Notes: a model not told the origin generated them from the letters alone. A stretch of DNA of 35,258 bases from Candidatus Hermodarchaeota archaeon (GCA_048885865.1 JBHLLF010000027.1:1-35258); one strand, 5' to 3'. Shown: positions 10,544 through 31,455, counted from the first letter of the stretch. Made by a program: numbers and translations.

Positions 10544-10751
10544 TAGGCGTTCTCCACGAGTGACAGGAGGGTTGTTAGAAACATCGATTTTGGGGCATCA
10601 ATCCTAATTAGACGAATTGGTTGACTTGGTTTTTGGGGTTCAATGCTTGAGTGGGATTGATAACGCAATCTTCGCGACATTATCGCTGAGAAATGAGGCA
10701 TGTTAAAAGTCATTGTGTATTTTCGAGTGCTGTAAGGAAGATGAAGCAACG

Positions 10752-12809
10752 ATGACCAAAGATGAACTTAGACCTGACATTGATGTTGACAAAATCACCT
10801 CCAAGAAGAATGCCAAGCATGCTATCAGTAGATTATCAAAATCCATCAGGTATCACAATCATAGATACTATGTTCTTGATTCACCAGTGATTGATGACTC
10901 AGAGTATGATGCATTGTTGCTGAATTTGATAGCTCTTGAGGAGAAATTCCCTGAGCTTCGGAGTTCTGACTCGCCAACGCAAAAGGTCGGCGGAGAGCCG
11001 CTATCAGAATTGGGGATCGTCGAGCACGCAATTCCTATGCTGAGTCTTCAGACAGTCTACGAAGAATCGGTGGTTCGAAAATTCGATACTAGATGTCGAA
11101 CCGAATTGGGTGTGGATGATGTTGAGTACATTGCAGAGCCCAAGTTTGATGGTCTTGCAGTCGAACTGATCTATGAGAATGGCTCGTTGACTGTTGCATC
11201 CACTAGGGGCGATGGTCAGACTGGCGAGGATGTCACTGCAAATGTGAAGACAATTCGAGAACTGCCCCTTGTCCTGCTTGATGACGATGATGATGACATT
11301 CCATCTCGCATTACAGTTCGCGGTGAGGTGTATATGGGGCTTGAGGATTTTGAGAAATTGAATGTCCAACGCGAGGCCGCTGACGAGCCAATCTTTGCTA
11401 ATCCGCGCAACGCGGCAGCTGGTTCCATAAGGCAACTGGATCCCAAGATTACAGCCAGTAGACCACTCCGGATATACATCTACGATGTGATGGAATCTGA
11501 AGGACGAGCTTTCGATACGCAATGGCAGGTGTTGGAATCTCTACCCAAATGGGGTCTCCCAACTCAGATTATACTCTCTCGACTCTGCCGAGGTGTTGAC
11601 GAGCTTCTAGAGTATCATCGTGAACTCGAAGGCAAAAGAGATGACCTAGCCTTTGAAATAGATGGAGTAGTCTTCAAGGTCAACTCCAAGTCGAATCAGG
11701 AGAGGATGGGTTTCAGAGCTAGAGACCCTCGATGGGCTATTGCCTACAAATTCAAGCCGAGGGCGGCAACAACCAGGCTGCTTGATATCAAGGTGCAGGT
11801 AGGAAGAACTGGCCGACTCACACCAGTAGCTGAACTTGATCCCGTTAACATAGGTGGAGTCACAGTCAGCAGAGCATCACTCCACAATCAGAGTGAGATT
11901 GAACGTAAAGACATCCGAATTGGCGATACTGTCATTGTTATTCGAGCTGGTGATGTTATACCACAGGTTGAGCGTCCAGTTCTTGACTCAAGGGATGGTT
12001 CTGAAAGAGTGTTTGACATGCCAATGACATGCCCTATCTGCAACTCTCCAATCCATATGAGCAATGATAAGAAGTTGGCTCAGTGTCCAAACCTCAATTG
12101 TCCTGCTCAGCTACGAAGAAGCATCAAGCATTTTGCATCTCGCAGTGGCATGGATATAGAGGGACTTGGGTCTAAGCGCGTAGACCAGCTCGTTGATGCT
12201 GGGATTGTGACAAGTCTCCATTCTCTCTATACACTGGATATTGATGACCTATTGGGCTTGGAGCGATTTGGAGAGCGTCTTGCCCTCAAGCTTCTTGAAC
12301 AGATTGAAGCCTCAAAGAGCCTTCCTCTAAATCGATTCATCTTTGCACTTGGGATACCAAATGTTGGAGAACAGACAGCGAAGATTCTTGCCGACAACTT
12401 CGAGTCTGTTAGCGAGCTGATTTCTGCAACTGAAAGCGACCTGTCAAGACTTGATACAATTGGGCCTGAAATTGCCAGAAGTATTGTAGAGTACTTTCAA
12501 TATGAAGATACGAGAAGTATGGTTGAGGATTTGGTTGAGGCGGGCTTGGGAAAGAAGACAGTTCTTGAAGAAGCTGCTCAGACTCTAGCTGGTAGTACGT
12601 TCGTATTTACTGGGGCTTTGGAGAAAATGAATAGAAGCAAAGCAAAGGAATTGGTCGAGAGTCTTGGTGCGAAGACTTCCTCAAGCGTGTCCAAGAATAC
12701 GACCTATGTTGTAGCAGGCCCTGGCGCAGGCTCAAAGCTTGAGAAGGCAAAGAAGCTTGGCATTGAAATTCTCAGTGAAGATGAGTTCATTGATCTGGTT
12801 GGTTTCTAG
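10752..12809 (+). CDS. ligA: NAD-dependent DNA ligase
   Basis: YHNHRYYVLDSP, PMLSL, adenylation motif EPKFDG, TRGDG, NPRNAAAGSIRQLD, PRWAIAYKF, VGRTGRLTP, C4 zinc finger (CPIC...CPNLNC), HhH, BRCT (FVFTGAL...GSKLEKAKKLGI). Start moved to ATG 10752. Confidence 0.97.
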   Translation: MTKDELRPDIDVDKITSKKNAKHAISRLSKSIRYHNHRYYVLDSPVIDDSEYDALLLNLIALEEKFPELRSSDSPTQKVGGEPLSELGIVEHAIPMLSLQTVYEESVVRKFDTRCRTELGVDDVEYIAEPKFDGLAVELIYENGSLTVASTRGDGQTGEDVTANVKTIRELPLVLLDDDDDDIPSRITVRGEVYMGLEDFEKLNVQREAADEPIFANPRNAAAGSIRQLDPKITASRPLRIYIYDVMESEGRAFDTQWQVLESLPKWGLPTQIILSRLCRGVDELLEYHRELEGKRDDLAFEIDGVVFKVNSKSNQERMGFRARDPRWAIAYKFKPRAATTRLLDIKVQVGRTGRLTPVAELDPVNIGGVTVSRASLHNQSEIERKDIRIGDTVIVIRAGDVIPQVERPVLDSRDGSERVFDMPMTCPICNSPIHMSNDKKLAQCPNLNCPAQLRRSIKHFASRSGMDIEGLGSKRVDQLVDAGIVTSLHSLYTLDIDDLLGLERFGERLALKLLEQIEASKSLPLNRFIFALGIPNVGEQTAKILADNFESVSELISATESDLSRLDTIGPEIARSIVEYFQYEDTRSMVEDLVEAGLGKKTVLEEAAQTLAGSTFVFTGALEKMNRSKAKELVESLGAKTSSSVSKNTTYVVAGPGAGSKLEKAKKLGIEILSEDEFIDLVGF

Positions 12810-13636: not shown

Positions 13637-15649
13637 TCACGAATTCTCAGTTGCACTTCGCCATTTTAGGAAGAAGACAGCTGCAGCCATTGCGACGATG
13701 CCTATTCCCACTCCCGCTGCAAGCGCCACTGCAAACAATGGCTCTAATGAAGGGGGGGCAGTTCTAGCTGGGGTCACCGTGATGATTAGAGTTGCTGAGC
13801 AATAGTTGGCAAAAGGATCATAGGCTCTCACCTCAAGGCTGTATACTCCTACATCAAGAATTGTGGCATTTGTGATAAGCCCTGATTCATCAATTGCAAA
13901 GTTTACGGTATCGCTAATCCAGTAATTCTCAATATTTGATTCATCCCATGCGCTCATCTGCTTTGAGAATGGTTCTCCAAACTCAAGCGTTTCAGTTAGT
14001 GATGCAATGACCCAAGACGGTGATGTTGTATCAGCAGCCGGTTGTCTAATGATTACTCCAAATACTGATGATAGCTTGTTATTGTGGGCGTCAAAGACGC
14101 TGATATTGAGTGCGTAGGAACCGGGGTCAAGAACGGAGGCGTTAGTCAATCGTGCAGTACTGCCCCCTTCATAGTAATACTCTGTAATTGCAAACTGAAT
14201 TGTGTTGTTGAGGATCCAGCCTGCGATTCCTGATGGATCACTAGCTACCACATAGTAATCGAATGCTTCTCGAAATTCAAGCGTCTGAGAGTGCGGTGCA
14301 ATCATCCAATTTGGTGAAACGTCCTCTCTCACTCTGATTGCGAAGTCAGCAGAAATGGAAATTCCATAGATATTGCTTACAACAATTTTGAGGTTATAGG
14401 AGATTGCCTCCAGGAAGTACTTGGATATCAACTGGCCAGTACCATCAATTGTGAAGTGGACCCCGTCACTGACCCACCATGTGATAGGGGACGGAGCGTA
14501 TGCTTGATACAAGGCACTGAATATCTCATCCTTCTGCTCTATTGTGACATCCTCCGGAGCTATAATCCATATTGGAGGAGTAGGATTGTACATCAAAGGA
14601 TACGAGTCAATAATGGTTGGAAGAATGTGAGGCGTATCTCCAATTCCGTCGCCATTTGAATCCATGCCTCCATAATCCGACCAGTAATTGTACCAAAACA
14701 CATCTGAGCTAATGCCTGTATTCTCACCATTAGAAACTCTGTTGTCTGCGACTATGTTCCATGAGAACTCGCAATCCGAAGGCCCACCTCCAATGTATAT
14801 CCCATAATCATTATTCACGAATGTGTTATTCGTAATCAAAGAGTTGGATGTACCATCTAGCTCTATTCCACACCATGTATTATTCCTGCATGTGTTGTTG
14901 GCGATTACTCCCCCACTTGAGAAAACGAATCGAATGCCTGCGCCATCACTGAAGAGGCAAGTGTTATTCGATACAGAACAGAAATCCGTGCCATCAACAT
15001 GAATTCCCCACCAATCACTATTATTTATCCAATTCTGACTTACCTTGGACCAAACAACTGCTAACAGCCAGATTCCCTGTGTGTTGCTTTCACAGATGTT
15101 GTCCTCGATAGTATTGTGATGGCCTGAGAAATCCCTGATTCCTTCTTCATTGAATTTGCATGTATTATTGATTATTGAATTATGACTTGACCCAGAATCT
15201 AACCAAATCCCATTCATGTTGGTGCTGCAGTTATTTTTGGAGATCTCAGCATATGACACATTATAGAGGAGAATGCCTGATCCAAGATCAGCACCAGTAA
15301 GGTGACAGCCACTGATCGTGAAGTTGACACGTGTATCTCGAATATAGATGCAATGACCCGTTGGACCACCATGATCAATTTCAAGGCTATCAATAATGAA
15401 TGGACTTTGTGCCGAACCGTTTCCCGGCCATCCTTCCGCCTGTGCTGTGTCGGTAAAATTCTGGTCACTAGTTATGGTTATTGGGGAATGCGGTGTGCGC
15501 GAGGTTATAGTCACAGTCTGGTTCTTCAATTCCATAGTTTCGTGCGTAATCCAATTGACATCTGAGCTTGCAGGAATTTGATACAAGGATAGTAGTAACG
15601 AAACTACAATAGCAAGCGAATAGACATAGAACCTATGCTGCATATGCAA
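13637..15649 (-). CDS. Membrane-anchored surface protein: parallel beta-helix (NosD-like) + three Ig/cadherin-like repeats + C-terminal TM
   Basis: Signal peptide; GWPGNGSAQSPFII; repeated NNTC/GI beta-helix rungs; NYWSDYGGMDSNGDGIGDTPH; repeated PxW...FxIDxxGxI units; TM LFAVALAAGVGIGIVAMAAAVFFL. Confidence 0.88.
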   Translation of the reverse strand: MHMQHRFYVYSLAIVVSLLLSLYQIPASSDVNWITHETMELKNQTVTITSRTPHSPITITSDQNFTDTAQAEGWPGNGSAQSPFIIDSLEIDHGGPTGHCIYIRDTRVNFTISGCHLTGADLGSGILLYNVSYAEISKNNCSTNMNGIWLDSGSSHNSIINNTCKFNEEGIRDFSGHHNTIEDNICESNTQGIWLLAVVWSKVSQNWINNSDWWGIHVDGTDFCSVSNNTCLFSDGAGIRFVFSSGGVIANNTCRNNTWCGIELDGTSNSLITNNTFVNNDYGIYIGGGPSDCEFSWNIVADNRVSNGENTGISSDVFWYNYWSDYGGMDSNGDGIGDTPHILPTIIDSYPLMYNPTPPIWIIAPEDVTIEQKDEIFSALYQAYAPSPITWWVSDGVHFTIDGTGQLISKYFLEAISYNLKIVVSNIYGISISADFAIRVREDVSPNWMIAPHSQTLEFREAFDYYVVASDPSGIAGWILNNTIQFAITEYYYEGGSTARLTNASVLDPGSYALNISVFDAHNNKLSSVFGVIIRQPAADTTSPSWVIASLTETLEFGEPFSKQMSAWDESNIENYWISDTVNFAIDESGLITNATILDVGVYSLEVRAYDPFANYCSATLIITVTPARTAPPSLEPLFAVALAAGVGIGIVAMAAAVFFLKWRSATENS

Positions 15650-19196: not shown

Positions 19197-21608
19197 TCAA
19201 GACTTCTTCTTGACGAACACGATGACGATTATCAATACAACAACTGCTCCTATTCCTCCGAGAGCAATGAACAACATGGGATCAAGGCCACCAGGTGTGG
19301 TGCCAGTAGGAGTTGTGGGTGAGGTGGGCGTTGTGGTGTCCGTAGTTGGTGTCGTTGTAGTTGGTAGTTCTTCAACTGTCACAGTAATAGTTGCACTCAA
19401 CACATTCCCATGCGTGTCGTTGCAAGAAATCTCCAGACCGTAGCTACCCGCTGCAAGGACTGTGGCATTGGTGATCACACCATTGCCATCAATTTCAAAG
19501 TCAGTAGTGTTCAGCCACCAGTTATCAATACCTGCAAGATCAGTCGCATCTACATCATAAGTAAAGTGTTCACCATACTCGATTACCTGGTTCTCAGGGG
19601 CTATAACCCAGCTTGGAAGAATTGTGTCCTCTACCGTTATGCCAATTAAAGCGCCCCGTGTATTCCCATAAGTATCATTCACATTGATAATTATGATGTA
19701 GATGTTCACTGCGAGGAACGTACTATTTGTAATCACTCCATCTGAGTCGATTGAGAACCCGCCACCGCCATATGTCAACCACCAGTGACTGATAGCAGAG
19801 GAGTCTGTTACATCTAGGTCATAATAGAAGGGATCACCATACTCAATTACTTGATCCTCAGGGGTGATAACCCAATCTGGAGGAGTTGTGTCCCAAGGCA
19901 CCACATAGATTGTGAACTCTGCTTGAATAGTGAAATTGTAGATATTAGTGACATTGACCATCAATTCGTATTCACCAAAAGCTAGAGCCCCTATCGGCTC
20001 AAGAGTGCCGTTCTCATCAATGGTAAAATGCACTACATCATTCACAGACCAAGTAACTGGAGCATAAGTGGTGATGTTGAGTTTGTAATAGAGAACGTCT
20101 AAATCAGTAATAGTCTGATCTTTTGGCGTTTCATTCCATCGGAATGGAATTGATCTGAACATCAATGGATGTGCATCTGAATGTCCAGCACTACCGCTGA
20201 TTGTATGGGGTGAGTCTCCAATACCATTCCCATTAGCATCTACACCAGCATAATCTGAATAGTAGTTGTAATCATACACATTGTCGTCATAGGCTGAATA
20301 CTGTCCGTCCTCTGCATCTACTGAGTTATCTTCAAAGATGTTCCACGAGATGGTATTGTTAATTGAATAGTAGTCGACCAAGACTCCTCGTGACCAGGGT
20401 AAACCGTCATTCTTACGACAGATGTTTTGAGTCACATCATTCCCTAATGTGTAGGGGCCGATGTGTATACCGTGGTCATTATTGTTGTTACACTCGTTGT
20501 TGGTCACATTCGTGTTATCCAAGTTCGTAAAGTACATCCCTGAATCGCCATTACCATCGCAGGTGTTATTGGTTAAGGTGCCGTCCGTACCGGCGTCAAA
20601 GTATATCCCTGAACCGACATTGAAACTGAAGTTGTTATTCGCTATTGTATGCTCTCCACCATTTGCGAATAAACCTCCACCCGAATTGCCAGTACCGGAG
20701 TTATTGATCACAGAGAGATAACTAGAGCTGAAATATATGCCATAATCTGCATTGTAATTACAGGTGTTGTTGACAAGAGTGCTATACATTGAACCCATAT
20801 GGGTGATACCCCTGAAGTTGTCATTACAAGTATTATTTGCCAGAGTGACATATTGCGCAAAATTTTCAACATATATTCCATAAGAATCCTGTCCGCTGAC
20901 ATTATTATTGGCAATAGTACTATAATCCGAATCAGATACAAGCATTCCATTATAGTTGCCAATAAGAGTACAATTGTCTACCGTGGTGTGTGGACTATGC
21001 CACAGATGAATTCCAAAACTAGGATTGTTTGAACAGATGTTGTCGATGATGGTGTTGTACCAACTATAATCAATTGACATGCCATAATCATTGAGGCTGC
21101 AATTATTGTCTACAATTGTATTATACCATGAATCAACGAGGTAGATGCCAAAATAGTTGCCAGTGCAGGTGTTGTTTATGATTCTCCCATTTTGTACGTT
21201 ATCCAGATTCAAACCCCTACTACTAGATGCATAAGCGAACTCGCAATTCTGTATCACAAAGTGGACTCTGGTATTTGATATATCGACACGTGGTGTCGCA
21301 CTCCCCCCAGAGGTTATACTTAGGTTTTCAATGATGAAGGGGTCTTCTAGTGTTCCATTTCCTTGCCACCCTTCAAGAAGAGCCGTGTCAGTGAAGTTGG
21401 TATCACCATCAATGTAGATTGGATCATGCGGGATACCTGAAAGAACCGCATTATTTCTTTCCTCTAAATCGAAAATAATCGATTGCGTTTCTGCATTATC
21501 AACAATAGCAGTGGGTGAGGATAGCGCTAGAAAAATTACGAATCCTAGCGCTGTGATAAACCAAAGTGGACCATTCTCTCCAGACATGATTATAATCATC
21601 CTTAGCAA
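19197..21608 (-). CDS. Membrane-anchored surface protein: parallel beta-helix + three Ig/cadherin-like repeats + Thr/Pro linker + TM; paralog of 13637-15649
   Basis: GWQGNGTLEDPFIIENL, many NNTC rungs, YNYYSDYAGVDANGNGIGDSPH, PxWVIxPExQVIEYG repeats, TTTTPTTDTTTPTSPTTPTG, TM followed by KKKS. True start may be ATG 21587. Confidence 0.9.
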   Translation of the reverse strand: MLRMIIIMSGENGPLWFITALGFVIFLALSSPTAIVDNAETQSIIFDLEERNNAVLSGIPHDPIYIDGDTNFTDTALLEGWQGNGTLEDPFIIENLSITSGGSATPRVDISNTRVHFVIQNCEFAYASSSRGLNLDNVQNGRIINNTCTGNYFGIYLVDSWYNTIVDNNCSLNDYGMSIDYSWYNTIIDNICSNNPSFGIHLWHSPHTTVDNCTLIGNYNGMLVSDSDYSTIANNNVSGQDSYGIYVENFAQYVTLANNTCNDNFRGITHMGSMYSTLVNNTCNYNADYGIYFSSSYLSVINNSGTGNSGGGLFANGGEHTIANNNFSFNVGSGIYFDAGTDGTLTNNTCDGNGDSGMYFTNLDNTNVTNNECNNNNDHGIHIGPYTLGNDVTQNICRKNDGLPWSRGVLVDYYSINNTISWNIFEDNSVDAEDGQYSAYDDNVYDYNYYSDYAGVDANGNGIGDSPHTISGSAGHSDAHPLMFRSIPFRWNETPKDQTITDLDVLYYKLNITTYAPVTWSVNDVVHFTIDENGTLEPIGALAFGEYELMVNVTNIYNFTIQAEFTIYVVPWDTTPPDWVITPEDQVIEYGDPFYYDLDVTDSSAISHWWLTYGGGGFSIDSDGVITNSTFLAVNIYIIIINVNDTYGNTRGALIGITVEDTILPSWVIAPENQVIEYGEHFTYDVDATDLAGIDNWWLNTTDFEIDGNGVITNATVLAAGSYGLEISCNDTHGNVLSATITVTVEELPTTTTPTTDTTTPTSPTTPTGTTPGGLDPMLFIALGGIGAVVVLIIVIVFVKKKS

Positions 21609-21747: not shown

Positions 21748-22434
21748 TTACTGTGACTTCTTTCTACGCTTGACAGATTTGGCAAGGGAAAGGATGAATT
21801 TCTCAAAGGGCTCCATAGCTTCTGGAACAAGAACCACAGAAGCGAACACATGAGGTTCCTTCCGGGAAATGGACAGGCGAGTTAAGAAAGGCGCGATGGC
21901 TTTGAAATCCGCGTAGAACTCCTGTTTCTCAAAGAGGCGCTCACCGGCTTCTAGATCGGATACTACAACATAGAACTGATCACTCAGATCGTCAATCAGT
22001 AGCTCGCTGGCACCTTCTATCTTGGGCTTCAATAACTCTTCCAGATTCTTCTTTTCTCTCTGAGTTGCCAGTTCGAGATTGAATAATGCAGGTCTTCCCA
22101 GGTTCGCCCGTATTTGGAGTTGGTCGGTTCGGCCGCGAATTTTGCAGTATGCAAAATGGAAGATGTTGGACCTGTCAAGCAATAGGATAGTTGATTCGAG
22201 TTTTGGCAGAGGACTATTTGATTTCTGATGATAGGAGAATTTGGCTCCAGTATTTCCAAGAAGTCTGACACTGACTTTTGAAGTCGTTGCTTCAAATCGA
22301 TTTGCTACATTCTGTGCAATCCTACTACGTAGCTTTGGTGTCTTCCATCGTCCTATCATCCATGTCCCAATCAAGAAGATTGCCACACCAAAGAGGACCA
22401 AATAACCTGTTTCAGCCAAGTTCTGCAATAGCAT
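21748..22434 (-). CDS. Single-pass membrane protein, CCDC47/DUF1682-like (PAT complex subunit-like)
   Basis: N-terminal TM then IGRWKTPKL; LLLDRSNIFHFAYCKIRGRTDQLQIRANL resembles remembered CCDC47 [30 protein letters not shown]. By-eye match only. Confidence 0.55.
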   Translation of the reverse strand: MLLQNLAETGYLVLFGVAIFLIGTWMIGRWKTPKLRSRIAQNVANRFEATTSKVSVRLLGNTGAKFSYHQKSNSPLPKLESTILLLDRSNIFHFAYCKIRGRTDQLQIRANLGRPALFNLELATQREKKNLEELLKPKIEGASELLIDDLSDQFYVVVSDLEAGERLFEKQEFYADFKAIAPFLTRLSISRKEPHVFASVVLVPEAMEPFEKFILSLAKSVKRRKKSQ

Positions 22435-22552: not shown

Positions 22553-23170
22553 ATGAGAACAAACGAACAGGTAGATGATATGCGTGAGGTCTGTGTCGAA
22601 GCCTGGAACATGCTTTTTGGTCGTGCCATTTTCGCCTTTCTCTTTCTACCTGATTCCTGGGTGACCGGATATCAAATGAACGATCCGCTGGTCACCAATA
22701 GATTCCTCTACAAAGACCGTGTATGGGTTGGTTCGGGAGAGATTGAATGTCTTATTTCACGAAGACACAGCACGGAGAAGCGTCCCAACCTTGATTTCAG
22801 AGCCAAGATTGTCGTGGAATTGAAGAAGGATACGCCTATTGCACCGAGCCCGGAAACACTTCTTGAACATCACTTCAACAAAGGTCGAGAAGTAGTGGAA
22901 CATGGTGAATTGCATAGTGGAGATCATATTGGCAGCTATATTCTCTGGGCTTCCAAGCGTCCTCGCTTCGGATTCTTTGGATCCCCCCGCCTCAATGCAC
23001 AATTGATAGGCTTTGTCCCGTGTGACGAAACTTCTCGACTCATAAAGGTCATTTGGACTTCACCTACTCCTGAGTTGATTATTGAAGAATCCGATGTGTT
23101 GATTTCGTCATTGAACTCTCTTTTATGTCATGGACACGACATAGAATCATACGAAGATGACCTTCTATAG
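22553..23170 (+). CDS. Hypothetical protein upstream of cstA
   Basis: 205-aa ORF (start may be ATG 22580) with beta-rich pattern, C-terminal CDET...LCHGH. Confidence 0.7.
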   Translation: MRTNEQVDDMREVCVEAWNMLFGRAIFAFLFLPDSWVTGYQMNDPLVTNRFLYKDRVWVGSGEIECLISRRHSTEKRPNLDFRAKIVVELKKDTPIAPSPETLLEHHFNKGREVVEHGELHSGDHIGSYILWASKRPRFGFFGSPRLNAQLIGFVPCDETSRLIKVIWTSPTPELIIEESDVLISSLNSLLCHGHDIESYEDDLL

Positions 23171-23246
23171 ACATATAGTTCCTGAAGAGATTGGAAAACA
23201 ATAGAAAACGAAGTATTTAATGGGGACCAATGCTACTCGTTTGCAA

Positions 23247-23295
23247 CCGAGACCGAGAATCCCCGAGGAGAGAGAGGGTTTCGGCCTTGGAGGTG
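23247..23295 (+). promoter_or_regulatory. Imperfect leader hairpin abutting the cstA Shine-Dalgarno
   Basis: CCGAGACCGAGAATCC pairs (with G-U and one mismatch) with GGGTTTCGGCCTTGG; SD GGAGGTG at 23289-23295; TATA-like TATTTAAT at 23214-23221. Confidence 0.45.
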
Positions 23296-23302
23296 GTTAG
23301 GT

Positions 23303-25084
23303 ATGCAAACACTTTCACCTGCAATATTTATCGGGGTCGGACTTGTAATCTACATATTTGGCTATTGGTTATACGCCAGATACGTAGATCGCAATGTTTG
23401 GGGCCCTGATGCAAAAGTAAAAACGCCTGCGCACATGTACATGGATGGTGTTGAGTTCTTCCCCACCTCAAAGAGTGTATTGTTCGGTTTCCAATTCAAA
23501 TCCATAGCAGCTCTCGGTCCTATTAGCGGTCCGTTTATAGCGCTAGTATTTGGCTGGTTGCCAGCATTCCTCTGGATAGTATTTGGCACATTCTTCATTG
23601 GTTGGATTCATGATTACACATCGGTCATGATAACAGTGCGCAGTGAGGGAGAATCCTTTGGTCCGATTGCCTATCGGATGGTAGGATCCCGAGCCCGCAA
23701 AGGTTTGATGGGCTTCATCATCTTCTATCTGATTCTAGTGATGGCTGTCTTCGCATACATCTGTGGAGCGTTCTTTAGAGCATTCCCACAGAGTATCATT
23801 CCGACAATCTTCGTGATTGCTGGAGGGGCATTTGCTGGAATCATGATGTACAGAAGAAAGATGAGCATTGTAATCTCCACTATTGTAGGCATGCTGTTCA
23901 TGGTTGTTGGCATCATATTGGGCATCTGGCTCTATGTAGAGGGCTATTTGGCCTGGGTGTCCACAACTCCGGTAGAATGGTGGATTATACTATCCCTGGT
24001 ACTAGTGTACTTTGGTGCTACATTAGCAATAACAGATTGGGCGCAACCAGTAAATTACGTTGCTTTCTGGCCATGTTTTGTAGCGGTGCTACTCATCATT
24101 GCCGGAGCTCTGCTTAGTCCACTTACACAGACAGTGGCAGAACCAGTTGCGGTTCAGATAGATCCGGTGATCACTCTGTTTACAGAGTCAAGTGGACCTA
24201 TTTGGCCAATTCTTTTCGTGGCAATTGCCTGTGGTGCTGTTTCTGGCTGGCATAGCCTAGTGGGAAGCAGTGCAACTGGAAAGCAAATCGCATCTGAGGT
24301 CGATGCTCTTCCTGTTGCTGGTGGCTCTATGTTCCTAGAAGGAGTCCTGGCAATGTGTGCGATGTCAGCATATGTTGTCATTCCAGAGGCACAAAGAGTA
24401 GGAGCATGGTTCGCCAACTTCCCGACCGGTGCAGCGATTCTCACTCAAGGTATGTTTGGTGGTGCTGCTGTATCCGGTATCGTGTTAGTTGCGTTCTTTG
24501 CTATGGTTCTAGAGCTCTATGCAATTACAGTGTTGCAGCTCATGCCTCGGTTCTTCCGTTTGGCTGCAGCTGACCTCGCTGGGCAATCGGTGATTGCTCC
24601 TCTGTTTCGAAATAAATGGATTGGGGCATTCATTGGAGTTCTAATTGCGTTCATCTTCGCGGCTACTGGCGCCTGGTATCACATATGGCTATTGTTCGGC
24701 GGCAGCAACCAGCTGCTTGCAGGACTTGCTCTGATGCTTGCGTCGGTGTATCTGGTACGTGCAAAGAAACCCACATACTATACGCTTGTCCCTGCTGTCT
24801 TCATGATTTTCACATGTGAGGCAGCACTCGTATGGGAAGCATGGGTGTTTGTCCAAGCCCTCATGAGTGCCACAGGCTATTATGCACAAGCCGGTAGTCT
24901 AGTAGACCTTCTAGCCCAAGGAGGCAATGCGTTGCCAGCAATCGCACTGACTTGGACTTTCCTCGGCATCGCAATAATATTGTTCTTCCTTGGATGGCTC
25001 GTCTTTGCCGACGCCTGGGCTGCATTAAGACGCGGTCCTGAGCAAACAGATGTATCAGTGGAAGTATCGACTCCAGTACAGTAG
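23303..25084 (+). CDS. cstA: Carbon starvation protein A (CstA) family transporter, atypical motif variant
   Basis: TPAHMYMDGVEFFPT, VLFGFQFKSIAALGPISGP, FGWLPAFLWI, GWIHDY, IACGAVSGWHSLVGS, WLLFGGSNQLLAG; many TM helices. Confidence 0.93.
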   Translation: MQTLSPAIFIGVGLVIYIFGYWLYARYVDRNVWGPDAKVKTPAHMYMDGVEFFPTSKSVLFGFQFKSIAALGPISGPFIALVFGWLPAFLWIVFGTFFIGWIHDYTSVMITVRSEGESFGPIAYRMVGSRARKGLMGFIIFYLILVMAVFAYICGAFFRAFPQSIIPTIFVIAGGAFAGIMMYRRKMSIVISTIVGMLFMVVGIILGIWLYVEGYLAWVSTTPVEWWIILSLVLVYFGATLAITDWAQPVNYVAFWPCFVAVLLIIAGALLSPLTQTVAEPVAVQIDPVITLFTESSGPIWPILFVAIACGAVSGWHSLVGSSATGKQIASEVDALPVAGGSMFLEGVLAMCAMSAYVVIPEAQRVGAWFANFPTGAAILTQGMFGGAAVSGIVLVAFFAMVLELYAITVLQLMPRFFRLAAADLAGQSVIAPLFRNKWIGAFIGVLIAFIFAATGAWYHIWLLFGGSNQLLAGLALMLASVYLVRAKKPTYYTLVPAVFMIFTCEAALVWEAWVFVQALMSATGYYAQAGSLVDLLAQGGNALPAIALTWTFLGIAIILFFLGWLVFADAWAALRRGPEQTDVSVEVSTPVQ

Positions 25085-25089
25085 AATAG

Positions 25090-25123
25090 AGTAGCCGAAA
25101 GGCTACTTCTTCTTTTTATTTTT
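25090..25123 (+). terminator. Hairpin (GAAA tetraloop) + T-tract after cstA
   Basis: AGTAGCC-GAAA-GGCTACT perfect 7-bp stem followed by TCTTCTTTTTATTTTT. Confidence 0.7.
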
Positions 25124-25191
25124 GTAAAAGGTACAAGTCATAATACTAATCTGCATTATATGATACCGCAGAGCTATCGGGTGGATATCAT

Positions 25192-25443
25192 TTGCATGTT
25201 TTCAAGAAGCTCAAAGAGTTTTGGGACGGAGTCTGGGCCGCTCAAAAGGAGAACCTTGCGCGCCCACTCATCAAGGCTACAACGTATCAGAATGATGCAA
25301 TGATTGTGACAATCTTTGGTGATTTCTTGGGATACCCATTTCAGTCAAATTTCTATTCTAGAAGATTATTCGTCTACTGGTTGGACAAGATTGATCCATG
25401 GCGCAAGCGAATACTAAAGGAAAAGGACTTCACTGATATGTAG
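25192..25443 (+). CDS. Small CstA/ArsA-associated protein (cory-CC-star-like), paralog 1
   Basis: DAMIVTIFGDFLGYPFQSNFYSRRLF..W....PWRKRILKEKDF; TTG start. Confidence 0.75.
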   Translation: MHVFKKLKEFWDGVWAAQKENLARPLIKATTYQNDAMIVTIFGDFLGYPFQSNFYSRRLFVYWLDKIDPWRKRILKEKDFTDM

Positions 25444-25566
25444 ATTTCACCTGGGCGTAGTTCTGTGGCACCTGAAGTTTTTTCACTTCAATTGAAATAG
25501 GGATAGTCCATAACACTAATTTGTGCTAACGCAGTAATCAGCTGTAATACCATAGGTGACTGTCAT

Positions 25567-25827
25567 TTGCAAGTTATCAAGGCTATTAGAGAATTCCTAC
25601 TAGGAGTTTGGGAGTCGCAAAAAGCTAGTCTTGCTGGACCTTTAATTAAGACTAAGGTTCATCTCGATGATGCCATGATGCTCGTGATCTTGGGCGAGCT
25701 CCTGGGGTATCCATTTCAATCAACTTTCTATTCCAGGCTTTTCTTTGTACACCTATTAGAGGAGCTGACTCCTTGGAAGAGACGGCTTTTGAGAGAGCAA
25801 GATGTCATCCTTTGCATGGAAGATTGA
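25567..25827 (+). CDS. Small CstA/ArsA-associated protein, paralog 2
   Basis: DAMMLVILGELLGYPFQSTFYSRLFF...PWKRRLLREQD; closest to paralog 1; TTG start. Confidence 0.75.
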   Translation: MQVIKAIREFLLGVWESQKASLAGPLIKTKVHLDDAMMLVILGELLGYPFQSTFYSRLFFVHLLEELTPWKRRLLREQDVILCMED

Positions 25828-25892
25828 ATCCGCCTTCGTTTGATGAAAAGAGTTATAGCAGGTTTCTATCTGTCAACGAAGGGGATTGAGAT

Positions 25893-26180
25893 ATGAACGC
25901 ACACAAGGATGTTGAAGAACCTGAACAGGAACGAGGCGCAAAAGGGGCTGTGAAAGACTTCTTCTATGGTATGGCAATGCAAGGCATGGCTAGGTATGCC
26001 TTGAAGACACGAATGTACCTTGAACAGCTCTTCATGCTCATCACTCTGGGCGATATGCTAGGTATTCCCATCCTTCCTCCATACTATTCACTTAAGCTTC
26101 TACCCTATGCTGTGCCGAATATTAAGACTTGGAAGCGAACCCTGTTCAAGGAACGTGACTTCACGGACGCCCTCTTTTAG
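25893..26180 (+). CDS. Small CstA/ArsA-associated protein, paralog 3
   Basis: LEQLFMLITLGDMLGIPILPPYYSLKLLPY...WKR; matches the remembered LFMLL..LG.P.P..YY.L.LLP pattern of small genes found between cstA and arsA. Confidence 0.8.
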   Translation: MNAHKDVEEPEQERGAKGAVKDFFYGMAMQGMARYALKTRMYLEQLFMLITLGDMLGIPILPPYYSLKLLPYAVPNIKTWKRTLFKERDFTDALF

Positions 26181-26227
26181 GCTGGTGATTCATAATCTCT
26201 GCTACATATCCAATTGGGTGAATTATA

Positions 26228-27235
26228 TTGTCCAAAAAAATGAGTACCTTCTTCGAATCTAATCCGGACTTAAAAATCGCGGTCTTTGCCGGAAAGGGAG
26301 GTCTGGGTAAAACCACATGTAGTGCCGCATTAGCGTCTTGGCTTGCAAAGAAGAGACAACGAATCCTTTGCTTTAGTACTGACCCCCAAGCATCATTATC
26401 TGACATCTTTGAGAAAGATGTTTTTGGAAAGGGGTCTGTTACTCTAGCCAAGAATCTGCACGTTATGGAAATTGACGCAGACAAGCGCATCGCCGCTTTT
26501 CAGGAAGAGATTCGACAGCAAATCAAGGACATGTATGGCATTGATGAGATTCCCAAGGAGATTGATGAATACATAAATGCGGCAGGGGCCGAGCCAGCGA
26601 TGCATGAATCCGCCACTTATGATGCGATGGCTGGATTGCTCGCCTCTGATGAATATGGTTTTCATGTCTTTGATATGCCCCCCTTTGGTCATGGCATTCG
26701 AATCGTATCAATGGCTCGAATACTCGATGTCTGGGTAGAGAAGATGGAAGAAACGCGAAAGAAAGCTCAAGAATATGGCGAGTCAGCCTGGCAGATGCAG
26801 CGAAGAACCTCCGGCGCTGGGCAAGACGAGATGCTTGCTGAATTAATAGAGATCCGGAAGAAGCTAAGCTTCTTCCAGAGTATTCTTACTGATGCCAAAC
26901 GAACCGCTTTCTATATGGTTGTCACTCCTGAGAAGATGTCAATTCTAGACACCGAACGTGCATTGAAAATGTTTGAGCAAATGGACATCACACTAACCGG
27001 CGTCATTATCAACCAAGTGTATCCAAGAGAGCTGCTTAAGCGGGATGATCTTAGTCAGTTTCTTCGTGAGCGCATTGAAATGCAGCAGAGGTATATGGTT
27101 GAGATCAAAGAGAAACTAGGCAAGCGTGTATGCGCAGTAATCCCGATGTTTGACAGAGAGCCAAAGGGTCTCGAGATGATAGGCAAAGTTGCTGATGTTA
27201 TGATGAATTGGGATGGAAAGATAACGGAGGAGTAG
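26228..27235 (+). CDS. ArsA/GET3 family ATPase (catalytic Asp retained)
   Basis: GKGGLGKTT, STDPQASLSD, MEIDA, FDMPPFGH, VVTPEKMSILDTER, GVIINQ, EPKGL. Confidence 0.93.
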   Translation: MSKKMSTFFESNPDLKIAVFAGKGGLGKTTCSAALASWLAKKRQRILCFSTDPQASLSDIFEKDVFGKGSVTLAKNLHVMEIDADKRIAAFQEEIRQQIKDMYGIDEIPKEIDEYINAAGAEPAMHESATYDAMAGLLASDEYGFHVFDMPPFGHGIRIVSMARILDVWVEKMEETRKKAQEYGESAWQMQRRTSGAGQDEMLAELIEIRKKLSFFQSILTDAKRTAFYMVVTPEKMSILDTERALKMFEQMDITLTGVIINQVYPRELLKRDDLSQFLRERIEMQQRYMVEIKEKLGKRVCAVIPMFDREPKGLEMIGKVADVMMNWDGKITEE

Positions 27236-27239
27236 AAGA

Positions 27240-28250
27240 ATGACTGAATCCAAATGGGAAGAATTTGTAAAACAGCATCCGAAAATCAAGTTCTTCTTTA
27301 CCGGTGGTAAAGGTGGTGTAGGAAAGACCGTCAGTGCTGCGGCGATTGCCCAATACTTTGTTTCTCGAGGGAAAAAGACTCTTCTTGCCTCTTTGAATCC
27401 AGTGCATTCTCTGTCCACCCTATATGGTCAGGACATTTGGGGACGCGGCATCCAAAAGATCGAAGGAGCGGAGAACTTGTGGGGTGTTGAGGTTGATATC
27501 ACAAAAAAGATGACGACTTATAGAAGCCAGCTCACAGAACGCATTACCTCGTTTCTCAAGTGGGCTGATATTCCTGTGAATCCCGAGGCATTTATCGAAA
27601 TTGCTGTCACAAATCCGGCTTTTGAGGAATCTGCTCAATTTGACACAATGACTGACATTATGCTTGAACAGGGCGATGAATATGATGTAATTGTCTTTGA
27701 CTGCGCCGCAGTGGCTAACGCTATTCGGCTACTTGGTCTCAGTAAAATCTACGACCTTTGGCTCAGTCGTATGATTGAGAGCAGAAAGGAGGCTCTATCC
27801 CTCAGAGTGCAGCTCTCTTTCAGAAAAGATAAGATTGCGGAAGAGGTAAAGAGTGATCCGATGCTGGGTGACCTGCTACGTCAACATGAGAAGAACCGCA
27901 AGGCAAAGGAGATACTTAGCGATGTTGAGAGGACTGCATTCGTATTTGTGACAATTCCCCTAGCGCTTCCAATTGCTGTTGTGCAGCGGTTCATTAAGAT
28001 GGTTCAAGCATTCGATATCCCGGTTGGAGGAGTGTTTGTAAACAGAATTATCCCGAAGATGGCTGCTGATGAAGACGCAACTGAATACATGAAGAACAGC
28101 TATCTTCAGCAGTCTAGATATATGGATATGATTAGCGAGCAGCTCGGAGAGATGGTCAACGCCTATGTGCCTCTATACCCCTCTGAAGTAGCAGGTGTGG
28201 AGGGTATTGAGAGATTCTGTCAGGACATGCTTACTTTCAATCCTGAATGA
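27240..28250 (+). CDS. ArsA/GET3 family ATPase with degenerate switch motifs
   Basis: GGKGGVGKT, SLNPVHSLS (D to N), VIVFDCAAVAN, GVFVNR, EVAG; 4 nt after the previous gene. Confidence 0.92.
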   Translation: MTESKWEEFVKQHPKIKFFFTGGKGGVGKTVSAAAIAQYFVSRGKKTLLASLNPVHSLSTLYGQDIWGRGIQKIEGAENLWGVEVDITKKMTTYRSQLTERITSFLKWADIPVNPEAFIEIAVTNPAFEESAQFDTMTDIMLEQGDEYDVIVFDCAAVANAIRLLGLSKIYDLWLSRMIESRKEALSLRVQLSFRKDKIAEEVKSDPMLGDLLRQHEKNRKAKEILSDVERTAFVFVTIPLALPIAVVQRFIKMVQAFDIPVGGVFVNRIIPKMAADEDATEYMKNSYLQQSRYMDMISEQLGEMVNAYVPLYPSEVAGVEGIERFCQDMLTFNPE

Positions 28251-28411
28251 CCAATCAATGGTTTAGTGTAGCTCTGCATTGAATGAAACGAAATAGGCAA
28301 TTCAGAATTATCGCTAATCCCTTGAAATAGAGCCTTGCCTAAAAATATCACTATAGTTAACCTTTAAAGCATTTTTCTACATGCTGGCTCTGGGAATGGT
28401 GTGTATTACCA

Positions 28412-28897: not shown

Positions 28898-29836
28898 TTG
28901 GTCTGTGAATTGCGAATTGCTATTATGGGAACAGGCGGTGTTGGTGGGTACTTTGGAGGATTACTGGCCAAATCTGGTCAAGATGTTGTTTTCATTGCTA
29001 GAGGAGAGCATCTTAAGGCAATCAAGAAGAACGGATTGCAGATTCGGAGTCCAAAGGGTGATTTCACAGTTCAATCAGTAGCGACAGATAAACCATCTGA
29101 GATTGATCCGGTTGATCTGATTCTCTTCTGTGTTAAGGGCTACGACACAGAAGATGCTGCCTATCAGGTCAAACCATTAGTGTCAAAAGGCACCATAGTT
29201 GTGTCATTGCAGAATGGTGTAGAGAAGGAGGAGATACTTGGCAGCATTCTTGGTGCTGACAATGTGATGGGCGGATTGTGCGCCTTGAGCGCCTATATTG
29301 AAGCGCCCGGAATAATCAATCATGAAGGACTAGAAAGGCTTGCTTTTGGTGAAATAGACGGGAGAGAATCTGAGCGAGGAAAGCAAATTCTTGAAGTATT
29401 CAAAAGCGCAGGAATAAATGCAAGCCTATCAACGAATATTGTTGCTGAGGAGTGGGAGAAATTCGCTTTCATTTGTGCGGTTGGAGGTCTCTGCAGCCTA
29501 ACAGGATTACCTGTGGGCCCAATCCTAGGCTATGAAGGAACGAAACAGCTGTATGAGCAGACTATGGCTGAAATCATTGAGATTGCTAGAGTAAAGGGTG
29601 TTTCATTGTCTGATGATGTTCTGCAGAAACTCATGAGCTTCTCACTTGGTCTTAATCCTGATATTAGACCGTCGATGTATCGCGACCTGATGAATAAGAG
29701 GAGAATTGAGATTGATATCCTAAACGGTGCAGTGGTGCGTCTTGGTCGCGCATTTCATGTTTCCACTCCGACAAATGACTTCATCTTTGCATGCCTTGAT
29801 GCCGTAAACAAAGTGAATCTGGGAATCAGAACCTAG
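28898..29836 (+). CDS. panE: 2-dehydropantoate 2-reductase (ketopantoate reductase)
   Basis: IAIMGTGGVGGYFG, CVKGYD, LQNGV, WEKF, PSMYRDL..KRRIEIDILNGAVV. Confidence 0.93.
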   Translation: MVCELRIAIMGTGGVGGYFGGLLAKSGQDVVFIARGEHLKAIKKNGLQIRSPKGDFTVQSVATDKPSEIDPVDLILFCVKGYDTEDAAYQVKPLVSKGTIVVSLQNGVEKEEILGSILGADNVMGGLCALSAYIEAPGIINHEGLERLAFGEIDGRESERGKQILEVFKSAGINASLSTNIVAEEWEKFAFICAVGGLCSLTGLPVGPILGYEGTKQLYEQTMAEIIEIARVKGVSLSDDVLQKLMSFSLGLNPDIRPSMYRDLMNKRRIEIDILNGAVVRLGRAFHVSTPTNDFIFACLDAVNKVNLGIRT

Positions 29837-29897: not shown

Positions 29898-30446
29898 ATG
29901 CGTATCTCAGGCTTGGATGAAGAGAGCAAGGCAGTAATTGATGTAGCACGTCTTATGCTTCTCGCGGCTAGGACTGCTCCCAAGGCCGCAGGCAAAGATG
30001 ACATTGAAACCGTTATTCTTACTGGAAAGGAGAAGGACGACATTGCTAAGGAGATGAGGGGAATGGCGGAAAAATACGGAGAGCATTATATTCGAGATGC
30101 AATAAATGTGGAGCAATCGTCGGCACTTGTTCTTCTGGGACTGAAGGGTTTCAAGTCTGTGGGAGTCAACTGTGGAGCTTGCGGTCATGAAACCTGTTCT
30201 GATTTCTCAAAAGCTGAGCAGAAGAAAGGAGCAGCATATGAGGGACCCATCTGCACAATTAAGGCGCTTGACCTCGGTATTGCATTGGGAAGCGCAGTCA
30301 AGACGGCACAGATTCACAATGTGGATAACCGAATCTTCTATCGAGCTGGTGCTGCAGCTCACAAGATGAAATTGATGCCTGACTGTCCAATTATCCTTTG
30401 CATTCCGCTGTCTGCAACTGGAAAGAGTGTCTTCTTCGATCGATAG
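29898..30446 (+). CDS. Ferredoxin-domain-containing protein (DUF2148/COG4739 type)
   Basis: AARTAPKAAG, NCGACG..C, GPIC, DLGIALGSA, VDNRIFYRAG, IPLSATGKSVFFDR. Confidence 0.88.
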   Translation: MRISGLDEESKAVIDVARLMLLAARTAPKAAGKDDIETVILTGKEKDDIAKEMRGMAEKYGEHYIRDAINVEQSSALVLLGLKGFKSVGVNCGACGHETCSDFSKAEQKKGAAYEGPICTIKALDLGIALGSAVKTAQIHNVDNRIFYRAGAAAHKMKLMPDCPIILCIPLSATGKSVFFDR

Positions 30447-30644: not shown

Positions 30645-31055
30645 TCATAGCTGTGCGATGAGCTTCTTTATGACTGAATGGTGACGTTTCTCATCCTCAA
30701 GAACATGCTCAAGCAGGTTTCGAACTGTTTCGTCATCCACTGATTTGACATTCTTCTTGATTAGTTCAATCATTCCCTCTTCTAGTTTGATGTGCCTTTC
30801 AAGCTCGATGGGGGAAACATATTCTCCAATTTTCCTACTCACAGCTAAATCCCAATCAGATGGAGGAAGAAGAATGTTCTCTTTAAGGACTTCGAATATT
30901 CTCTTGTGTTTCTTGGAGTCCATTAAGAGCCCTTCAAAAATGAGTCTGAATGCGAAATTCCCAATCATCGCCAATGCATCCTCATATGCCTTGATAGCTC
31001 TATCTTCGACTTCTATCTGTCTGTCAAGCAATTTGACAAGCTGATCACGATCCAT
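30645..31055 (-). CDS. Ferritin-like/rubrerythrin-like diiron four-helix protein
   Basis: Internally duplicated E...(D/E)xxH motifs: VEDRAIKAY...DSKKH and LEEGMIE...DEKRH. Confidence 0.82.
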   Translation of the reverse strand: MDRDQLVKLLDRQIEVEDRAIKAYEDALAMIGNFAFRLIFEGLLMDSKKHKRIFEVLKENILLPPSDWDLAVSRKIGEYVSPIELERHIKLEEGMIELIKKNVKSVDDETVRNLLEHVLEDEKRHHSVIKKLIAQL

Positions 31056-31191
31056 ATTATTCCCTCATGCTCTTCTTCTAGATTGAGGGATATCAAACAC
31101 CCCTATTTGGCATTTATTATCTGACAATATCATGCGTGGAACCCAAGCCCTCACAAGAAGCGGTTCCAAATTGAGCATCTACATGCTGACC

Positions 31192-31455
31192 TCAATAAAG
31201 CGCGTCTGTGAAATCACGTTCCTTGAACAGTGATCGTTTCCAGTATCTGATATTGGGAACCGCATAAGGTAGGAGCTTCAATGAATAATAGGGTGGAAGA
31301 ATCGGTATTCCTAACATATCGCCATGTGTTATTATCATAAACAGGTTTTCAAGGTACATCCGTGTCTTTAGAGCATATCTTGCCATGCCATGAAATGCCA
31401 TGCCATAGATGAAGTCTCTTACAGCTTTTGCTATTTCTTGTCTCGTCCAAACCAA
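31192..31455 (-). CDS. Small CstA/ArsA-associated protein, detached inverted copy of paralog 3
   Basis: Near-identical to 25893-26180 (GMARYALKTRMYLE.LFM.IT.GDMLGIPILPPYYSLKLLPYAVPNI..WKR.LFKERDFTDAL). Confidence 0.82.
   Translation of the reverse strand: MVWTRQEIAKAVRDFIYGMAFHGMARYALKTRMYLENLFMIITHGDMLGIPILPPYYSLKLLPYAVPNIRYWKRSLFKERDFTDALY

Follow-up and report, generated by a model that had tools for sequence, protein, structure and literature searches.

What might a permease of the CstA family do with two ATPases of the Get3/ArsA type and a set of very small proteins? The question is raised by a locus of a Candidatus Hermodarchaeota archaeon, a member of the Asgard archaea, whose genome is a metagenome-assembled genome (MAG) of 3.58 Mb and 87% completeness. 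We analysed a stretch of 35,258 nucleotides of this genome (GCA_048885865.1, JBHLLF010000027.1:1-35258), which is called the window throughout. The genes cstA and cstY, two types of gene for the small protein CstX and two ATPase genes are co-inherited across archaea and bacteria, and their arrangement recurs far beyond chance in 78 archaeal and bacterial loci. The locus is a further copy of an already described and experimentally untouched module, whose small subunits have been expanded in this genus only. As the reading of its function we favour, tentatively, a CstA transporter complex that is switched or driven by ATP.

An earlier note, made by a model from the DNA of the window, had grouped most of these genes into one system. 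Open reading frame (ORF) calls together with Pfam and NCBIfam scans found all of its genes, at the same coordinates. The features on which the question turns are the following (aa, amino acids):

21748-22434, minus strand: CstY candidate, 228 aa, divergent from the hyp205-cstA unit
22553-23170, plus strand: hypothetical protein hyp205, 205 aa, conserved, upstream of cstA
23303-25084, plus strand: CstA-family permease, 593 aa (Pfam: PF02554, E 1.8e-99)
25089-25108, plus strand: terminator-like hairpin with a T-rich tail, directly 3' of the cstA stop codon, a consensus match only
25192-25443, plus strand: small protein copy 1, a divergent B-type DUF7990/CstX protein of 83 aa
25567-25827, plus strand: small protein copy 2, a divergent B-type DUF7990/CstX protein of 86 aa
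25893-26180, plus strand: small protein copy 3, a conserved A-type DUF7990/CstX protein of 95 aa, directly 5' of ATPase 1
26228-27235, plus strand: ATPase 1 (ArsA1), Get3/ArsA-type, 335 aa (Pfam: PF02374, E 4e-68)
27240-28250, plus strand: ATPase 2 (ArsA2), Get3/ArsA-type, 336 aa (Pfam: PF02374, E 3e-56)
31192-31455, minus strand: small protein copy 4, the second A-type protein, 87 aa, distant from the ATPases

The two ATPase genes are separated by 4 nt, and Pfam annotates one ArsA_ATPase domain in each product. cstA is a single-copy gene in this genome and codes for a protein with many hydrophobic segments. The terminator-like hairpin after its stop codon suggests that cstA is transcribed apart from the block of small genes and ATPase genes. 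The minus-strand gene at 21748-22434, which was not part of the system in the earlier note, belongs to the module and fits the published CstY.

Relatives of the small proteins were collected by a pattern scan in one genome per GTDB species, which gave the 78 loci. Their archaeal hosts are Asgard archaea (Thor-, Hermod-, Sif- and Baldrarchaeia), Bathyarchaeia, Korarchaeia, other Thermoproteota, Nitrososphaeria, Methanomethylicia and Thermoplasmata. The bacterial hosts belong to Chloroflexota, Thermodesulfobacteriota and Acidobacteriota, and there is one MAG labelled as Pseudomonadota. The neighbourhood survey that had been proposed as a check thus returns the same arrangement in archaea and bacteria alike. 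ArsA1 and ArsA2 lie directly 3' of an A-type small gene in 62 of the 63 loci with enough downstream sequence. This count is made up of 52 automated assignments and ten of eleven 'no pair' rows which, when reread, were artefacts of overlapping start calls; the sole true exception to the order of small gene and ATPase pair is L025, an orthologue of the distal copy 4. In all 29 loci with wide flanks cstA is found at a distance of at most 6 kb, either 5' on the same strand or 3' and convergent, and an ORF of the cstY family stands beside cstA in 51 of the 66 loci with cstA, mostly within ~110 nt.

The module is patchy, being present in ~6-7% of the sampled Asgard genomes, yet it is internally tightly linked: among 201 such genomes the small gene was found in 14 and cstA in 12, and all 12 genomes with cstA are among those 14. 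The two genomes that have the small gene and no cstA are 69-80% complete. The ATPase pairs, the cstA linkage and the co-occurrence in Asgard genomes bear out the idea that these genes make up a single conserved unit of function, and synteny and co-occurrence likewise tie the small proteins both to CstA and to the ATPases, as had been supposed.

Clusters of cstA with partner genes were described in 26 genomes by Castillo & Saier (2010, Int J Microbiol 2010:187373, PMC2963123). The partners in that study are CstX, a protein of ~90 aa that sometimes occurs as two paralogs, single-domain ArsA homologues of ~330 aa, sometimes in adjacent pairs, and, in five archaea, CstY, a protein of ~210 aa with one transmembrane segment (TMS); the clusters are without ars genes (PMC2963123). 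Thermococcus kodakarensis, Pyrobaculum, Symbiobacterium thermophilum and Wolinella succinogenes are among the carriers listed there. It was proposed there that the ArsA homologue energises CstA and that CstX is the linker. The coupling of the ATPase pair to CstA by the small proteins is therefore the published proposal of 2010 (PMC2963123) and not newly recognised. In the literature searched, we found no later paper that uses the names CstX or CstY, and no study that put the module to an experimental test. Gene context is the ground on which the small proteins would be adaptors or clients and the ATPases would energise CstA.

The two ATPases are the part of the module with the best known relatives. 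Both pass the Get3/TRC40 model TIGR00345 (219.5 bits for ATPase 1 and 210.5 bits for ATPase 2, with a cut-off of 135), and the nearest solved structures of both are the archaeal Get3 proteins 3ZQ6 and 3UG6 (E 4e-53 to 3e-44; 4e-53 and 2e-52 for ATPase 1). The matches of E. coli ArsA to the two proteins have E-values of 1e-21 to 3e-27. By sequence the ATPases are thus nearer to archaeal Get3 than to ArsA.

The motifs were surveyed in 67 ArsA1 and 64 ArsA2 orthologues. While the P-loop GKGG(L/V)GKT is invariant in both types, the switch regions differ. ArsA1 has the switch-I Asp in 67 of 67 sequences and D..P.GH in switch II, and the switch I of ATPase 1 in the window reads STDPQASL. In ArsA2 an Asn replaces this Asp in 63 of 64 sequences (residue 53 in the window, nt 27396-27398), and in switch II the Gly is changed to Ala in 64 of 64 and the His to Asn in 48 of 64, so that the general pattern is DxAxxA(N/H), with DCAAVAN in the window. 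In yeast Get3 the equivalent change from Asp to Asn keeps ATP binding and blocks hydrolysis. From this effect and from the motif asymmetry, we infer that the two proteins form a heterodimer in which one site hydrolyses ATP and the other is degenerate. The earlier description of the two genes as an ArsA/GET3 pair stands, with both proteins single-domain and their genes 4 nt apart, and can be extended by the rule that one subunit is intact and the other degenerate. In a maximum-likelihood tree a single branch separates ArsA1 from ArsA2 (SH-aLRT 96-97) and the internal topology of the two clades is mirrored, which indicates that the duplication is older than the spread of the module and that the two types are passed on together.

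A canonical Get3 is also encoded in this genome, where it stands alone on contig C4 at 27306-28352 (1378-2424 of locus L005) and has the signatures STDPAHSL and DTAPTGH and the CxxC motif. The signatures of the three Get3/ArsA-type proteins of the genome are distinct, and their mutual identity is ~30%. Neither ArsA1 nor ArsA2 has the CxxC of Get3 or any conserved cysteine column, the median number of Cys being 1 and 0.5 per protein.

The name of the Pfam domain, ArsA_ATPase, invites the explanation that the two proteins are arsenite or antimonite pump partners of Acr3 or ArsB-like carriers encoded elsewhere. The genome does have an Acr3 (290 bits, above the cut-off) and weak matches to the ArsB family. 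This Acr3, however, is on a separate contig beside an ArsR-family gene of its own, and no ars gene was found among the window ORFs scanned (7969-32455), in agreement with what had been noticed at first. The scores with the true ArsA model TIGR04291 are 95.5 and 92.8 bits, far under the cut-off of 650, and the ATPases are single-domain proteins that lack a conserved cysteine column. The linkage of the ATPases to cstA and CstX is, in addition, near-invariant in the 78 loci, and no link of the pair to the Acr3 or to the ArsB-family matches was seen. An arsenic role is unlikely, and to the pump with a remote carrier in particular we give next to no credence.

The closeness to Get3 speaks for another explanation, which is the main rival to the transporter reading. 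The genes could form a dedicated membrane-assembly module, in which a Get3-like heterodimer chaperones or targets the CstX hairpins or segments of CstA and CstY is a CCDC47-like scaffold; the ATPases would then be required for building the CstA complex and not for its operation. We regard this as a real possibility, if an unlikely one. The helical subdomains of the pair fit it in their length, which is that of the canonical Get3 of the genome and includes the TRC40-insert region. Their composition does not fit it as well, since the helical regions are more charged than those of the canonical Get3 (charged fraction 0.34-0.39 against 0.26) and have fewer Met.

The small proteins bear on the same alternative. 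The four of them align with 16 invariant columns and have the motif LG(Y/I)P...(F/Y)YS in common, and a profile search across the entire assembly returned exactly four copies. Copy 4 is 78% identical to copy 3, and copy 2 is 51% identical to copy 1. DUF7990 (Pfam: PF25952) is the precomputed annotation of the window copies and of 120 of the 120 relatives listed, with ~3,900 relatives found, and in the Atlas copy 3 leads to DUF7990 clusters with a score of 0.98. The A-type proteins have the core ..LGD(M/L)(L/I)G(I/V)P(I/V)LPPYYSL(K/R)LLPY...WKRR..(K/R)E(K/R)D, adjoin ArsA1 and are 55-97% identical from bacteria to Asgard archaea, whereas the B-type is divergent. At the same loci the identity of the ATPases is 42-98%, so that CstX is the better conserved of the two.

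Four small genes are unusual, as had been suspected. Two are found in 63 of the 78 loci, one in 7, three in 4 and four in 4, the last solely in the nearest relatives. The four copies are confined to the genus of the window, where the genomes G307 and G325 have four each; G289 has two. The regions 5' of copies 1 and 2 (25085-25191 and 25444-25566) share the repeated stretch CATAA(T/C)ACTAAT(C/T)TG, and the tandem duplication that produced them therefore also took in sequence 5' of the gene, which may be a promoter. Compared with the L015 and L017 orthologues, dN/dS is ~0.16-0.22 for copy 1, 0.14-0.15 for copy 2, 0.02-0.03 for copy 3 and 0.14-0.15 for copy 4: all four copies are, by these sequence comparisons, under purifying selection. 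The value of 0.02-0.03 is more in keeping with a permanent subunit than with a passive client and in this respect counts against an assembly function of the ATPases. Copy 4 stands beside a rubrerythrin-like gene, a pairing that is kept in L015, L016, L017 and L025, and given that it is kept in the nearest relatives, the distal gene may serve a separate purpose.

An AlphaFold2 model of copy 3, made with 114 sequences, has two helices (residues 13-55 and 63-94) which are joined at GIPILPP (mean pLDDT 78.5, core 85-92, pTM 0.51). The best 19-residue Kyte-Doolittle mean of the small proteins in the window is 0.85-1.54; over the family its median is 1.53 for the A-type and 1.27 for the B-type, and both flanks of the hydrophobic stretch are basic. 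An acidic residue lies inside this stretch in 154 of 161 members. Of the central hydrophobic helix that the earlier note had described, the hydrophobic segment is therefore retained, but with its moderate hydropathy it is not a classical transmembrane helix. We read the CstX model as a hairpin that faces the cytoplasm and has no spanning helix, and whose invariant tip would meet a protein or dip into the membrane. As the hydropathy is mostly below the transmembrane threshold and the core has an acidic residue, a protein-contact element is favoured over a lipid anchor. For the assembly module it can be said that a moderately hydrophobic hairpin core, which contains a conserved acidic residue and lies ~20 residues before the C-terminus, resembles a segment of the GET/PAT type. 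Foldseek returned nothing at E <= 0.001 for the CstX model and a wide search matched only single long helices (Z ~5); the fold searches are uninformative either way on a relation to the Get1 coiled coil.

Natural long proteins were considered as evidence of contacts and found to be too weak overall, each clean case being one record. The clean ones are P0121 and P0122, with a double CstX, and P0143, a read-through of CstX into ArsA1. In P0127 the C-terminus of CstA is in frame with a CstX that lacks the usual N-terminal part, a single and ambiguous record. P0126, P0148, P0149, P0150, P0152 and P0153 were rejected, as they show Arg/Ser-rich junk of the frameshift kind or deletions at the junction.

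CstY has one strong N-terminal transmembrane segment (Kyte-Doolittle 19-residue mean 2.01, residues 10-28), and by the positive-inside rule its domain is probably cytoplasmic, on the same side as the ATPases. Its AlphaFold2 model (pLDDT 91.3, pTM 0.84) is predicted to fold like CCDC47. The top three Foldseek matches are the translocon chains 7TM3_4, 9I78_4 and 6W6L_7 (CCDC47) with E-values of 1.6e-9 to 5.7e-7, and VIA-align gives Z 17.3 for chain 4 of 7TM3 (rmsd 3.1 A over 218 residues), 15.1 for chain 4 of 9I78 and 13.1 for the third of the CCDC47 chains. The mycobacterial TtfA (6T84) follows with Z 11.2 and the next match has 5.9. At the level of sequence, a profile search against the PDB sequences returned solely 9I78_4, named CCDC47, with a non-significant E of 3. 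The Pfam family CCDC47 (Pfam: PF07946) matches 17 of 31 members of the CstY family (best E 2.8e-7) and does not match the window protein at E <=10, and the Atlas leads from CstY to CCDC47 clusters at lead level (0.79). No paper that links CCDC47 to archaea, bacteria or TtfA was found in the literature searched. The predicted fold (Z 17.3) is a further argument for the assembly module, against which it can be held that CstY lacks the coiled coil that CCDC47 uses to reach the ribosome.

How could the parts work together? In the ATP-dependent transporter complex that we favour, the products would form a single multi-subunit membrane machine centred on the CstA permease. ArsA1 and ArsA2 would pair into a heterodimer that hydrolyses ATP at one site, the other site being degenerate, and serve as an ATP-dependent switch or motor at the cytoplasmic face. 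The two-helix CstX proteins would bind this dimer with the invariant tip and the basic C-terminal helix and connect it to CstA, the conserved and the divergent CstX type matching the two ATPase types. The membrane-anchored CstY would flank CstA as an accessory subunit, as TtfA does for MmpL3, and ATP binding and hydrolysis would drive or gate the transport of small carboxylates or peptides via CstA. The four small copies in this genus, kept by selection, may permit alternative adaptor combinations. There are precedents for such contacts: ArsB is the protein to which ArsA docks, and MmpL3 has TtfA as an accessory. We prefer this reading because of the patchy distribution, the extreme conservation of CstX and the separate canonical Get3. 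The patchy spread in particular favours an accessory of a transporter over a general biogenesis machinery.

Several points weigh against an ATP-driven CstA. The E. coli proteins CstA and BtsT are proton symporters that work without an ATPase, so that the family needs none. The ATPases are, as judged by sequence, closest to Get3, which is documented for holding hydrophobic helices and not for energising transport, and the nearest structural relative of the modelled CstY is a membrane-protein biogenesis factor. The terminator-like site and the variable position of cstA suggest that CstA is coupled more loosely than CstX to the ATPases, a difference that also agrees with the assembly module. Finally, the contacts between the subunits are deduced from gene context. 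On the other side, six genes for the assembly of one permease would be uneconomical; moreover, ~93% of the sampled Asgard genomes are without the module, and every cstA sampled there comes with it and none is free of the ATPases.

The asymmetric ATP sites would also suit an energy-state sensor, in which the heterodimer toggles CstA in response to the ATP/ADP ratio, through the binding or release of CstX, and does not power it. MinD, ParA and Get3, relatives with the deviant Walker-A motif, are nucleotide switches, and the degeneracy of one site agrees with stably bound ATP and regulation at one site only. The CstA family, too, is named for its induction by carbon starvation in E. coli. Two ATPases and two adaptors are, however, heavy equipment for a regulator, and the idea overlaps with ATP-driven transport; we consider a pure sensor decidedly unlikely. 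Somewhat less doubtful, though still unlikely, is a prokaryotic assembly machine in which a Get3-type heterodimer and a CCDC47-type scaffold cooperate on hydrophobic hairpins and a multipass permease.

For the substrate of the proposed CstA transporter complex there are hints from the first two of the neighbouring genes, which in the window are the following:

28898-29836, plus strand: PanE/ApbA-family reductase (Pfam), a recurrent neighbour whose membership in the module is uncertain
29898-30446, plus strand: DUF2148 ferredoxin-domain protein (Pfam), a recurrent neighbour whose membership in the module is uncertain
within 30645-31455, minus strand: rubrerythrin/ferritin-like gene beside copy 4, 136 aa (Pfam: PF02915, E 1.3e-6)

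PanE-like genes adjoin the module in 7 Asgard loci, 8 Chloroflexota loci and one Desulforhabdus locus, and DUF2148 is found near it in L045, L049 and L081 and close relatives. Taken together, these two kinds of neighbour recur in Asgard as well as Chloroflexota/Thermodesulfobacteriota loci, namely L064, L073, L078, L082, L084, L086-L088, L090, L045, L049 and L081, which hints at a 2-oxo or 2-hydroxy acid as the substrate. The hypothetical protein hyp205 has no match in Pfam or NCBIfam, and its orthologues were found in 12 loci, of Asgard archaea and a few Bathyarchaeia/Thermoproteota. It was considered as a second CstY and rejected (hhalign probability 0.13% against CstY).

Apart from the module, the window of this Asgard genome contains a complete NAD-dependent DNA ligase of the bacterial LigA type (10713-12809, plus strand), whose domains are adenylation, OB, zinc-finger, HhH and BRCT. 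On the minus strand, less than 6 kb apart, are the genes of two large NosD/parallel beta-helix repeat proteins (13637-15649 and 19197-21608), one of which has a weak cadherin-like match.

The module is of interest for the role of Get3/ArsA-type ATPases in prokaryotes beyond arsenic resistance, as it offers a conserved setting for tests, with the genes of the probable partners adjoining one another. Should the ATPases drive or gate CstA, ArsAB would be joined by a second example of a secondary-type carrier made ATP-dependent. If they serve assembly instead, there would be a dedicated GET-like pathway in prokaryotes with a CCDC47-like protein, which bears on the origins of the membrane-protein biogenesis factors of the endoplasmic reticulum (ER). 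And if the heterodimer and the scaffold cooperate, the GET and PAT factors, which are separate at the eukaryotic ER, would have cooperating archaeal and bacterial relatives, and CCDC47 would be prokaryotic in origin.

Among known systems, a small protein encoded beside a gene of the CstA family is also the case for YbdD/YjiX (DUF466) and for cory-CC-star. A short (L/I)G(I/M)P..Y stretch, aligned as M(L/I)G(I/M)P..Y, is common to CstX and YbdD/YjiX. Homology to E. coli YbdD/YjiX (Pfam: PF04328) found no support, with a hhalign probability of 0.3-0.5% over 10 columns and no Pfam match at E <=10. DUF466 was found neither in 151 genomes of the phylum of one bacterial carrier nor in five bacterial genomes with the module, and a complementary distribution of DUF466 and the module is only a hint. 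Membership in cory-CC-star (NF041419) was rejected as well, with 17-31 bits against a cut-off of 80 (best E 2e-7 at 30.9 bits) and without the terminal Cys-Cys, although these weak matches had pointed to the CstA partners that end in CC; the C-termini of the small proteins in the window are DALF, DALY, FTDM and CMED.

Among ATPase pairs, BagA and BagB of M. tuberculosis (Rv3679/Rv3680) are reportedly adjacent ATPases of the Get3/ArsA fold that act as a heterodimer. By the scores BagAB is merely a distant relative of the present pair, for which membership was rejected (NF053622/NF053621, 30-49 bits with cut-offs of 400 and 521); the BagA structure 6BS3 is matched by ATPase 2 only (E 5e-6). The archaeal Get3 proteins of M. 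thermautotrophicus (3ZQ6) and M. jannaschii (3UG6) are the best sequence matches in the PDB, TIGR00345 is passed and the domain length is equal. In contrast to them, the pair lacks the CxxC zinc motif found at the interface of the Get3 homodimer and consists of two diverged paralogs (30% identical) instead of a homodimer; ArsA2 is without the catalytic Asp and the helical subdomain of the pair is more charged. With the ArsA-ArsB pump the module has in common an ATPase of the same superfamily together with a secondary-type carrier, and the ArsA pseudo-dimer has two unequal nucleotide sites. It differs from the pump in its unfused single domains without metalloid-binding cysteines, in a carrier of another family, in the absence of an ars regulator or reductase and in its extra small subunits.

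CstY resembles CCDC47 of the PAT complex and multipass translocon in having a membrane anchor followed by a predicted cytoplasmic alpha/beta domain. Unlike CCDC47, it starts 9 residues before the transmembrane segment and ends at residue 228 with one short helix, so that the luminal acidic N-domain and the C-terminal coiled coil are missing, and it is linked to a transporter and also found in bacteria. Nothing resembling an Asterix gene was seen in the locus, although no search was aimed at an Asterix partner. With TtfA, the second-best fold family of the CstY model, it has in common that an N-terminally anchored protein accompanies a multipass transporter, as an accessory in the case of MmpL3; the transporter family is a different one, TtfA has no known ATPase partner and the identity is 6% over the aligned part.

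The closest likeness is to the cluster of Castillo & Saier, as the locus has a CstA permease, copies of 83-95 aa for the ~90-aa CstX, matched by description, two single-domain ArsA homologues (335 and 336 aa), scanned ORFs free of ars genes and a CstY of 228 aa with one N-terminal transmembrane segment, likewise matched by description. The four small copies set the present locus apart from that cluster. The asymmetry of one intact and one degenerate ATPase as a rule, the closeness to Get3, the two-helix model of CstX and the predicted CCDC47 fold of CstY go beyond what is given in that paper.

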